Shown here: positions 36,070 through 39,370 of the stretch, in pieces
Numbering within the stretch: position 1 is the stretch's first letter
How the letters are laid out: each line of letters opens with the position of its first letter
From: Promethearchaeota archaeon
Lineage (GTDB): Archaea > Asgardarchaeota > Lokiarchaeia > Sigyniarchaeales > SOKP01
Direction: 5' to 3'
Length of the DNA stretch: 64,000 nt
NCBI GenBank assembly: GCA_016839765.1
Contig: JAEOTP010000016.1
Span: 134,785 to 198,784 of the forward strand
Notes under the pieces: generated by a model
The model's input: the letters and a program-made list of their open reading frames with translations, nothing else
Told to the model about the DNA's origin: nothing
Database searches by the model: none
Position numbers and translations under genes: made by a program

Positions 36070-36555
36070 TTATTTAGAATGTAAGGGAATATCTTCTATA
36101 GTAATATTGTTGACTCTTTTTATCGATAAAAACTTTTCTTTTATCAATTCTGTATTTAAATGACTGGATTCAAGAGTGTCTCCAATTAGATATGTTTCAT
36201 AAAAGCATTTTTCTAATTCATAACAAATACCAGTTGTGTGTAGTATATCTTTACTTAAATTTAGTTCACTTAGTACTTCTGAAATACCTTTAACAATTTC
36301 TGGTGAAAATTCTTCTAATTTTATTAGAATTTTCTTAATTAGTTTAGTATTTGTAGGAAAACAACTTACTTTTATAACATCTTCTCGGGATATAAAAATT
36401 AATAGATAATAAGGCGAATCAATAATTTCTTCTTTTACTTCGTCAGGAAAAATAGTAAATTTCAAATCTTCTTTTGTTATAATTAGACCCAAGGAGATTT
36501 TGTTTTTTTCTTTTCTCTCAGTGTTTTTTGTAACCATATCCATCAAAAAATCCAA
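36070..36555 (-). CDS. Hypothetical protein (possible C-terminal ACT-like fold)
   Basis: ILHTTGICYELEKCFYETY; alternating alpha/beta pattern. Confidence 0.65.
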   Translation of the reverse strand: MDFLMDMVTKNTERKEKNKISLGLIITKEDLKFTIFPDEVKEEIIDSPYYLLIFISREDVIKVSCFPTNTKLIKKILIKLEEFSPEIVKGISEVLSELNLSKDILHTTGICYELEKCFYETYLIGDTLESSHLNTELIKEKFLSIKRVNNITIEDIPLHSK

Positions 36556-36787
36556 AGTAATTAAAAATATATGTCTATTAATAAAATTTGTTTGTTTTTA
36601 ATATTTATTTTTTTTTAATTTAATCTATACAATTTAAAATTCGTAATTTGGTATGTAATTAAAAAGACATTGAGTAAAGATAAAAAGTTATAATCTGGAT
36701 ATTACAAAGATAACATACATATTTTAAAAAACAATTTAAAGTTTGTTAATTAGGTGATTTTGATTATTATAGAGAAAATTTTGAATT

Positions 36788-37282
36788 ATGTCTTATAAAT
36801 TTAATGATATTGACCAAAATATGGAATTTGGCTTTGATGTTAAAAGGATCAGCCGAAATGAGTGCTATTTTCATGCAATATATTTTTTAGATAATTTAAC
36901 AGGTTCTCTCCTGGTTAGTAAAAAATATTCTGAATATTTAAATTCTCCTTCAAATGGAGATTTGATCAGTGGGTTTTTAACTGCTCTAAATTTATTTATA
37001 AAAGAAATAAAGCCTGGTGATACGGATGAAGAGATTCAGGAAATCAATTTTAAAGAAACACGAATTTTATATGAAAGAAGAGGAAGACTTACTGTAATTG
37101 CGATAACTAAAAAATCAACTATTCAATTTGAAAGACATATCTTAAATCTAATTGTAGATGATTTTTATAATCGGTTTGGAAGATCAATAAATCATTTTAA
37201 TGGTCTTATTGAACCTACAATTTTAGATTATAAAAAGAAGTTAAAGGTGCTTGGTTTATATAATTCTGATTTTGAAAAATAA
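36788..37282 (+). CDS. Longin-like domain protein
   Basis: IYFLDNLTGSLLVSKKY...DLISGFLTALNLFIKEI...EEIQEINF...RILYE pattern. Confidence 0.7.
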   Translation: MSYKFNDIDQNMEFGFDVKRISRNECYFHAIYFLDNLTGSLLVSKKYSEYLNSPSNGDLISGFLTALNLFIKEIKPGDTDEEIQEINFKETRILYERRGRLTVIAITKKSTIQFERHILNLIVDDFYNRFGRSINHFNGLIEPTILDYKKKLKVLGLYNSDFEK

Positions 37283-37306
37283 AGCTTTTAGAAATTATTT
37301 AGAAGG

Positions 37307-38464
37307 TTATTCTTCTTTCTTTTTCTCCTCGATTTTTTTGATTTCCCCTTCGATCTTTTCACTTATTCCCTTTATATCAGGCTTAATTTCCATTCGCTTT
37401 AAATCTTCTTCTCGTTGTTTGTCTCTTCTAAAAGCTTTTTCACTAATTATCTTTTCAATTGCTTCTCCTGCTTTTTCTAAATCTGGCTTTAATTCCAATC
37501 TTTTCATATCTTCCTCACGTTGTTTATCAATTCTAAAAGCTTTCTCACTTATCGTTTTTTCAATGGCTTGACCAACTTTTTCCAAATCTGGTTTAATTTT
37601 TTTACGTTCTTCTGCCGCCTCACGTTGCTTTTCTAATCTAAATGCTTTTTCACTCACTGATTGGCTTATTACCTCACTTGCTTTTTCTACATCTGGTTTC
37701 AATTCCATTCTTTTTTGATCTATCTCTCTTTGTTTATCTATTCTAAATGCTTTTTCTGCTACGGTTTTACTTATTGCCTCTCCTGTTTTTCTAAAGTCTG
37801 GTTTCAGTTCCAATCTTTTCATATCTTCCTCACGTTGTTTATCAATTCTAAAAGCTTTCTCACTTATCGTTTTTTCGATGGCTTGTCCAGCTTTCTCTAG
37901 ATCAGGTTTTATTTTAAATCGTTGGGAGTCGCTTTCCTTCTTTTTCTCAATTAAAAAAGCTTTTTCATCGATGGATTTACTAATTGCTTCGCTTGTTTTT
38001 TCTAAATCTGGTTTAATCTTAAGCCTTTGAGCATCACTTTCTCTCTTTTTTTCTATCATGAATACTTTTTGGTCAACAGATTTACTTATAACCTCTCCAG
38101 TACCTTTTATATCCGGTTTTAGTTCTATTCTTTGTAAATCTTCTTCACGCTGCTTCTCTCGTAAAAACGCTTTTTCACCAATTGTTTTTTCAATAGCACT
38201 TCCTTTTTGTTCTATATCAGGTTTTATTTTCATTCTTTCTAGATCTTTTTCTCGTTGTTTCTCTCGCAGGAAGCTTTTTTCTGAAATCAAATTGGAAATT
38301 AGATCTTTGCTTTCTTCAAATGCCTTTTTTCTTTGTTCTTCAGTTAGTTTAAGATATTGTTCTCTTTCTTCTTTTTCTTTTTTATAAAGTTCATTAACAA
38401 TTTTTTTTTGTTTTTCAATTTCTTCTGGAGTTAAATGATTTTCATTTTCTTCCAATTTCCTCAC
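37307..38464 (-). CDS. Highly charged protein made of 35-aa tandem repeats
   Basis: Eight full exact-length 35-aa units plus partial units at both ends; consensus KPDLEKaGeAIeKtIsEKAFridKQREeDxkRxei. Confidence 0.85.
   Translation of the reverse strand: MRKLEENENHLTPEEIEKQKKIVNELYKKEKEEREQYLKLTEEQRKKAFEESKDLISNLISEKSFLREKQREKDLERMKIKPDIEQKGSAIEKTIGEKAFLREKQREEDLQRIELKPDIKGTGEVISKSVDQKVFMIEKKRESDAQRLKIKPDLEKTSEAISKSIDEKAFLIEKKKESDSQRFKIKPDLEKAGQAIEKTISEKAFRIDKQREEDMKRLELKPDFRKTGEAISKTVAEKAFRIDKQREIDQKRMELKPDVEKASEVISQSVSEKAFRLEKQREAAEERKKIKPDLEKVGQAIEKTISEKAFRIDKQREEDMKRLELKPDLEKAGEAIEKIISEKAFRRDKQREEDLKRMEIKPDIKGISEKIEGEIKKIEEKKKEE
37385..38224 (-). repeat. 105-bp tandem coding repeat (8 full units)
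   Basis: Repeated units visible in the DNA; a ~70-nt identical stretch recurs at 37501 and 37816 (315 bp = 3 units apart). Confidence 0.9.
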
Positions 38465-38623
38465 TTCAAAAAAAATAAAATACGTGTTGTTAAATATAAT
38501 ATCAAAATTTGTATTTATTAATTTACTTATCCAAGAATTAATAGTTTTGAATTTAAAGTAAGAAAATCAATTATTATATGGTAAAGGTTTACAAACTCTG
38601 AAGATTTTATAATTGTTATATTT

Positions 38624-39370
38624 CTATTTTATTGGTATAGGTTCAAATGACTCTTCAGAAACCGAATCCATCAAACTAATCATGGTAAGCTTCATCGTGA
38701 GCATTTCCATAACTTCTGTTAATAATTTTTGATAATAGTTTGATGTTCTATCAACATTATATTTAGAAATAATTTCGTCATATTTTCTTTTCAGCAATAA
38801 TTTTAAATTTTCTTGGAAATCTAAATCCAGTTTTTGTGTTTTTAACCAATTATCAATCTGATCTTTAATTTGAATTCCTAATTCATCATCTTTGACATAT
38901 CTAATTTCTACTTCTTCGATATATTGTAGATTATCAAGATATTCCTGATCTTGATACATTGGCTTTAAAAGAAGACCTAAATTGATTATTAGTGGTTGAA
39001 TTTGCAATTTATCTAAAGAATCAGATAAAAGTTTTAAAATTTGCCGTTTTTGGGTTAATTTTGCATAATTTATATAATCTTGAATGAAGTTTAATAGTGC
39101 ATTTTTTATTAATAATTCTTGAAAATCGTTTATTGATTCGATTTCTAAGTCAAGAGTTTTTTCAATACAATTATATACAGCATTCATAAATGGTTTTATG
39201 TTCTTAAACATGGAAAAATAGTAAATAAATTGAACAACTTTCCCTAAAATCTCTTCTTTTATGTTATCTGATTCAAAAGAAGAGTCAACTTTCTGTTTAA
39301 GATTAAAAGAATTATCAGAAATTGATAAGAAGATCTTTATATCTGAATATTTAGATTCAAATACCATCAA
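38624..39370 (-). CDS. Hypothetical alpha-helical protein
   Basis: 248-aa ORF, no recognisable motif. Confidence 0.7.
   Translation of the reverse strand: MMVFESKYSDIKIFLSISDNSFNLKQKVDSSFESDNIKEEILGKVVQFIYYFSMFKNIKPFMNAVYNCIEKTLDLEIESINDFQELLIKNALLNFIQDYINYAKLTQKRQILKLLSDSLDKLQIQPLIINLGLLLKPMYQDQEYLDNLQYIEEVEIRYVKDDELGIQIKDQIDNWLKTQKLDLDFQENLKLLLKRKYDEIISKYNVDRTSNYYQKLLTEVMEMLTMKLTMISLMDSVSEESFEPIPIK

Follow-up and report, generated by a model that had tools for sequence, protein, structure and literature searches.

Among described systems, the closest in layout to the protein analyzed here are the actin-binding modules of nebulin. These Pro-initiated helical modules of 31-38 amino acids can bind one actin subunit each, and they share Asp3, Pro5, Lys11, Ser18, Asp19, an invariant Tyr22, Lys23, and Lys30, of which Tyr22 contacts actin Lys68 and Ser18 contacts actin Glu276 (bioRxiv 10.1101/2021.10.06.463400). 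In Asgard archaea, profilins and gelsolins make up most of the known actin regulators (PMC13716822), and the Lokiactin filament has a rise of 27.9 Å per subunit (PMC9834061). A repeat protein encoded in the DNA stretch under study (the window, 64,000 nucleotides of a Promethearchaeota archaeon contig) was likened to nebulin in a first-pass annotation. We find that this likeness holds for the layout, namely the 35-aa period, Pro at the helix start, the predicted absence of a self-contained fold, and a unit length that would suit the Lokiactin strand step, and that it fails at the level of sequence. The protein belongs to a real, undescribed, lineage-restricted family of helical repeats.

The respective open reading frame occupies positions 37307-38464 of the minus strand and is open for 385 codons from a GTG codon, the length originally annotated, but the probable product is three residues shorter. 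The GTG is invariant in all 24 family-level sequences examined, the codon nine nucleotides downstream alternates among ATG, TTG, and GTG, and the GTGA sequence is complementary to the 3' end of the genome's own 16S (on contig C56). Thus we place the translation start, with probability rather than certainty, at TTG 38455, and the upstream GTG probably belongs to the ribosome-binding site. The features of the gene are as follows.

37307..38455, minus strand: gene of the 35-aa repeat protein, under purifying selection (382 aa from the probable TTG start at 38455; 385 aa if GTG 38464 is used)
38461..38464, minus strand: conserved GTGA, probable Shine-Dalgarno site, 5 nt upstream of the start codon
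38330..38455, minus strand: N-terminal charged helical head of about 42 aa, a predicted helix (pLDDT 81-90)
38225..38329, minus strand: degenerate unit 0, lacking Pro, with the EK[AS]F core in register
37385..38224, minus strand: eight full units of 35 aa (105 bp); in the prediction, each forms one 31-residue helix and is interrupted for 4 residues at KPD
37307..37384, minus strand: C-terminal half unit (only the first helix half) and stop codon

The arrangement at window positions 38453-38464 (minus strand), with GTGA five bases ahead of an ATG/TTG/GTG start, can be mistaken for a GTG start in frame, and naive ORF callers overextend genes with such sites by three codons. The dN/dS values of 0.08-0.14 (codons 4-290, against six homologues) indicate that the repeat gene, present as a single copy in the source genome, is a genuine protein-coding gene under purifying selection and not a chance ORF. 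One RNA run gave two 150-nt contigs within the gene at a depth of 3-4, which could be DNA. The codon bias of the gene ranks at the 85th percentile relative to four reference genes, too weak a signal for use, and a promoter scan at the gene gave a signal at chance level.

The described array of eight 35-aa repeats without indels, followed by a 25-aa tail, was confirmed, with KPD at residues 81, 116, and onwards to 361 in eight spacings of exactly 35 and a tandem period of 105 bp (TRF score 428). The repeats are exact in length but not in sequence, with identities between units of 42-97% at the protein level and 49-91% at the DNA level; the unit quoted as typical corresponds to residues 186-220. 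The supposed 80-aa head consists of a head of ~45 aa and a ninth, Pro-less unit (residues 46-80) with its core in register, giving nine cores in the window protein. The N-terminal head is kept even in distant relatives with units of 37-41 aa, and its Arg45, together with Ile56, is invariant. Units 4 and 7 are 97% identical, equivalent to a 315-bp duplication. A three-unit super-repeat pattern is seen in the genus of the window gene only (57% identity at lag 3 versus 49%), where it reflects such 315-bp duplications, and we rejected a universal three-unit super-repeat across the family. The window protein lacks both Cys and a signal peptide, and its net charge is +0.8 per unit. Several homologues (L045, L046, L047, L085, P0002, P0003) carry at the C-terminus an extra short Trp-containing amphipathic helix (KWL..Q.KK), not present in the window protein, which might possibly serve as a membrane or partner anchor. 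In the C-termini of genus g28 (L048-L053, L076-L105), the terminal half unit reads roughly IV.KFE in the repeat register; this recalls the actin-binding helix of Lifeact, though the match is short and may be due to chance.

Of the 710 core spacings found across the family, 702 equal 35 aa; the other eight are 32 aa long, with residues lost at the helix end only. The strict length conservation noted for the window protein therefore extends to the family, but not to more distant relatives, which use 37-41 aa: the period is 37 aa in G042, and mixed 37-, 38-, and 41-aa units with an altered core occur in G039, G041, and P0039-P0045. In the relatives from family f4, all three of these lengths are found within one chain, and the later units lack the EKAF core. 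The survey of repeat number proposed in the first-pass annotation gave 3-13 cores (mostly 10-12) in complete genes of this one lokiarchaeal family, and a one-unit form (P0033) also exists. Copy number shifts through duplication of whole units or of three units; counts are unreliable in fragmented assemblies, where runs of N lie inside the repeat array (L049, L052, L055, L093, L104, L107). The most conserved unit positions are Arg/Lys26 (100%), Ile11 (99%), Lys18 (98%), and Phe20 (96%), followed by Ala19 (88%), Pro2 (85%), Glu27 (84%), and Glu17 (83%), and position 16 is rich in Gly, Ser, and Asp, which is compatible with a kink.

The distribution of the repeat gene is narrow. The unit profile detected it in 110 of 134 genomes of this lokiarchaeal family (one match being marginal) and in 1/14 and 2/4 genomes of other families of the order, while in other Asgard classes 2 of 239 genomes matched, at chance level only (E 0.01-0.04). 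Searched against 1.84 billion representative proteins, the same profile retrieved 37 proteins, none longer than 405 aa; the 17 that were read are members or fragments of the family. A first word-index search for relatives had returned one chimeric fragment only. One distant homologue, from a Lokiarchaeota archaeon, bears the annotation "hypothetical protein". In five database proteins (P0001, P0017, P0018, P0037, P0038), the family head is joined to unrelated tails; these look like chimeras of short assemblies and not true fusions, and P0001 sits on a 1.6-kb contig. No family that accounts for the repeat protein was found in Pfam, NCBIfam, or PHROGs, the latter two giving nothing near the cut-off, and literature searches yielded no description of it.

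The repeat gene was not found in the two sister genera g23 and g29, and we take its absence at this locus as real, because in seven g23/g29 genomes the flanking genes are immediate neighbors (as they are in G050). In contrast, six checked absences in genera that normally carry the gene are probably assembly gaps, since the orthologue of the neighboring gene is missing too. The gene was also not found in the complete genome G050, and none of three profiles detected it in G044 and G055, complete genomes of a single contig each (4.4 Mb and 6.0 Mb, respectively). All these genomes keep Lokiactin, and the repeat gene is thus an accessory one. No actin or actin-regulator gene is among the neighbors examined. 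The block around the repeat gene includes the following genes.

36070-36555: gene for a 161-aa protein, ACT-like by eye only, with no significant Pfam or NCBIfam match
36788-37282: gene for a 164-aa protein, longin-like by eye only, with no significant Pfam or NCBIfam match
38624-39370: gene for a 248-aa helical protein with no significant Pfam or NCBIfam match

The neighbor block at window positions 36070-39370 is conserved as far as G050 in another family, and the 248-aa gene is missing at this site in several genomes (L006, L007, L009, L016, L017). We rejected a functional link between the repeat gene and its neighbors, considering that the flanking genes adjoin without it in the seven g23/g29 genomes and in G050, and that the gene contexts of the relatives from families f2 and f4 are different.

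The sequence resemblance to nebulin was evaluated over 699 units. The proposed alignment by eye, in which SExxFR was matched to the SDxxYK motif, did not withstand this comparison: SDxxYK is found in exact form in none of the units and in relaxed form in 41, and at the SExxFR positions 15% of units carry Ser, 4% Tyr, and 27% the next K/R. The chosen register is nevertheless the best-scoring one, with a small residue at nebulin position 18 in 63%, an acidic residue at position 19 in 92%, and an aromatic residue (Phe) at position 22 in 99% of units, and with Pro matching Pro5, one residue off, in 85%. Matches at other nebulin positions are infrequent (K/R11 5%, K/R23 27%, K/R30 18%, D/E3 0%), and the best-register fit to the eight conserved positions equals that of column shuffles (p=0.29 loose, 0.9 strict). 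The resemblance is strongest in the window protein because, by chance, Ser and Arg occupy two variable positions in several of its units. The Pfam profile of nebulin (PF00880) was not among the matches of the window protein at E<=10 or among the 25 Pfam families listed for 24 homologues, and none of its 78 sub-threshold matches over 41 genomes fell in a repeat gene. On these grounds we rejected membership in the nebulin family.

Other database matches had different explanations. The top PDB sequence match was the designed protein dPPR10 (E 8.7e-8); this match vanished with the unit profile, and among shuffled controls 12 of 2000 perfectly periodic sequences, versus 0 of 2000 non-periodic ones, reached E 1e-7 or better, so the match is best explained by matched periodicity. 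A PPR identity was rejected, as PF01535 misses the repeat gene and no helical hairpin is predicted. Entericidin (PF08085), a family of small secreted lipoproteins with a lipobox Cys, scored above the cut-off with 29.5 bits summed over 12-residue stretches of the repeats, and we consider it a repeat-summed false positive in a protein with neither Cys nor signal peptide. The likeness to beta-thymosin proposed from KPD..EK was not borne out, with no match of the Thymosin and WH2 profiles in five genomes and an LKKT-like motif in 3 of 699 units.

The predicted structure of the repeats is extended. AlphaFold2 models of three units (100-row alignment, pTM 0.26) place helices at positions 4-34, 39-69, and 74-104, and the full-length model (24 rows) has a pTM of 0.20. 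In these models, each unit is one continuous helix by DSSP (positions 4-34) followed by a four-residue break, with about 90% helix content, no tertiary packing, and no inter-unit contacts. Covariation, at a low depth (Neff 287), is nearly all local (i+1 to i+4) or between the same position in consecutive units, with no hairpin ladder. On a straight helix Phe20 lies 180 degrees from Ile11, and the conserved residues form two opposite faces, Ile4/Ile11/Ile15/Lys18 and Glu17/Phe20/Lys24/Glu27. The unit is amphipathic only in its first half, where the hydrophobic moment is 0.53 (positions 4-15); in the second half it drops to 0.03. Positions 4, 8, 11, 15, and 22 form a stripe of hydrophobic or small residues. 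A hydrophobic stripe is present in the first half of the unit only, with charged or polar residues at positions 18, 25, 29, and 32 of the heptad core. Foldseek found no match in the PDB, the Atlas shape search returned generic long helices only (TM by query <=0.37), and ESM Atlas feature searches gave nothing usable.

The source genome has five actin-family genes, including Lokiactin (L031:1474-2619) and a close paralogue (L032:1480-2616, on G000:C64). Lokiactin has Met at the position of actin Lys68 and Asp at that of Glu276. The paralogue, which scores 434 bits versus 441 for Lokiactin with PF00022, keeps Lys at the actin-68 position. The family has a patchy distribution of paralogues with about 82% identity to Lokiactin (G024, G157-G159). 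Lokiactin is 95-99% identical among the tested genera of the family versus 84-92% (full-length matches) in the rest of the order. We observed no pattern of co-occurrence of the repeat gene with Lokiactin or the paralogue, and no change in Lokiactin with the presence or absence of the gene. The strand step of the Lokiactin filament amounts to 2 x 27.9 = 55.8 Å, and the span of one unit, calculated from 31 helical residues at 1.5 Å each and at most four extended ones, is 47-60 Å.

Because the units present two opposite conserved faces and nothing in the monomer buries them, we infer a repeating partner, which could be a foreign polymer or other copies of the same chain. The best explanation, which we hold tentatively, is a multivalent polymer side-binder, most likely of Lokiactin and convergent with nebulin; the near-uniform unit length, the unpacked predicted helices, the near-invariant residues on the two faces, and the presence of Lokiactin in the genome all point to it. 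A foreign polymer of any kind as the partner is a real but minority possibility. Lokiactin, favored because its strand step lies within the span of the unit, would be a guess that we regard as doubtful, and the still more specific model by analogy, in which each 35-aa helix would lie in the Lokiactin groove with one unit per subunit and Phe20 at the place of the nebulin Tyr22-Lys68 contact, is rather unlikely. Several observations count against a side-binder: (i) no sequence link to any actin-binding family was found; (ii) the repeat gene is missing in g23 and g29 (Lokiactin identity to the source genome 95-99%) and in G044, G050, and G055, all keeping Lokiactin; (iii) the mixed units of the f4 relatives fit a fixed polymer step poorly; (iv) the partner of nebulin Tyr22 is replaced by Met in Lokiactin; (v) the predicted helix lacks the long loop of nebulin and the examined neighbors lack an actin gene; and (vi), against actin as the partner, Lokiactin does not change with the presence of the repeat gene. 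Self-assembly, whereby copies would join in a staggered or antiparallel bundle or filament and the period and two faces would provide chain-to-chain register, is possible if doubtful. It would explain a period that is uniform within the lineage and drifts between lineages (35, 37, 37-41), as well as a Lokiactin that is indifferent to the repeat gene; moreover, 35 residues equal five heptads with a hydrophobic or small stripe, and two conserved faces suit higher-order bundles. However, the stripe stops at the first half of the unit, the heptad core is charged or polar beyond it, and no off-helix covariation points to inter-chain contacts at the available depth.

Tandem thymosin and WH2 proteins act as multivalent binders of a soluble partner. 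A comparable scaffold or sink for G-actin, a small GTPase, a longin-type protein, or nucleic acid, in which the linker only spaces the partners, would agree with a copy number free to vary from 3 to 13, with the one-unit form, and with the conserved Lys18, Lys24, Arg/Lys26, and Arg32 in a positively charged unit. It is unlikely, though, considering that independent sites would not require 99% length conservation, that the WH2, Thymosin, and PPR profiles all miss the gene and LKKT-like motifs are rare, and that the longin-like neighbor persists where the repeat gene is absent. Less probable again is a lipid binder built of Pro-punctuated amphipathic helices, as in apolipoproteins, or a hydrophilic stress-protection protein. 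The amphipathic first half of the unit, the Trp-containing terminal helix of some homologues, and the short amphipathic stretch marked by the Entericidin match fit this reading, but the second half has almost no hydrophobic moment, the invariant Phe20 is on the polar face, and the invariant Ile, Lys, and Phe are stricter than lipid binding usually needs. We place last, as very improbable, a true homologue of nebulin, nebulette, or LASP inherited from an Asgard-eukaryote ancestor. The shared modal length, the Pro ahead of the helix, and the small, acidic, and aromatic residues in the best register speak for it; against it, the positional fit is at chance and works only with one residue inserted in helix 1, there is no match for Asp3, Lys11, Lys23, and Lys30, the nebulin HMM is negative, the unit profile retrieved no protein longer than 405 aa, and no member of the family was found in other Asgard classes. 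In order of decreasing probability, the readings are thus polymer side-binder, self-assembly, scaffold, lipid or stress function, and nebulin homology.

Under the preferred reading of a polymer side-binder, the product would be an elongated cytoplasmic protein with many binding sites for a repeating protein surface, and it would have arisen within one lokiarchaeal order independently of nebulin. Each unit would probably dock in the groove of one polymer subunit, and 9-12 weak contacts would be summed along the polymer. The length covered would be about 50 nm for nine units and about 70 nm for thirteen. Since the span is short and the number of units (3-13) varies between close relatives, the filament ruler originally suggested is improbable. 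If the repeat protein binds actin, local stabilization is plausible, and the effect would be stiffening or stabilizing of a filament stretch of about 50 nm, more like LASP or nebulette than a ruler. Such a side-binder, if confirmed, would add a new layer of Asgard actin control, a class beyond profilins and gelsolins, and would represent convergence on the nebulin design. Since the family is restricted to a single lokiarchaeal order, with none found in other Asgard classes, it would have little bearing on the origin of eukaryotes. Even with a non-actin partner, this is a repeat family new to the searched databases and literature, and its members are small, predicted to be soluble, and available in natural length variants.

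The repeat protein can be compared with four known systems. Like PPR proteins (PF01535), it has a 35-aa period and a similar MK...KPD register at the end; unlike them, it has charged residues at the helix-B core positions. With beta-thymosin and WH2 proteins (PF01290, PF02205) it shares KPD followed by a short amphipathic helix in tandem copies, whereas its helix runs on to 31 residues and has no LKKT-type motif. It further resembles proteins of the apolipoprotein A-I/A-IV type and ER/K single alpha-helices, with no profile support, in having long helices with one Pro break per repeat and a second half of the unit rich in E/R/K; in contrast to apolipoproteins, the period is 35 instead of 11/22, half of the unit is amphipathic, and invariant residues occur on both faces. 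The differences from nebulin (PF00880; nebulin, nebulette, LASP, and N-RAP) include the lack of SDxxYK, Phe in place of the invariant Tyr, a Pro-to-aromatic distance of 18 versus 17, no equivalents of Asp3, Lys11, and Lys30, a unit predicted as one 31-residue helix versus two helices and a long loop, a three-unit pattern in a single genus versus 7-unit super-repeats, and 3-13 units with no LIM or SH3 domain and no profile match. Nonetheless, the repeat protein and nebulin have in common a modal unit of 35 aa (range 32-41 and 31-38, respectively), Pro at the helix start, a highly charged chain, extended and lacking a self-contained fold (as predicted for the repeat protein), a conserved aromatic residue with an acidic residue three positions before it, and length changes at the helix end or loop.
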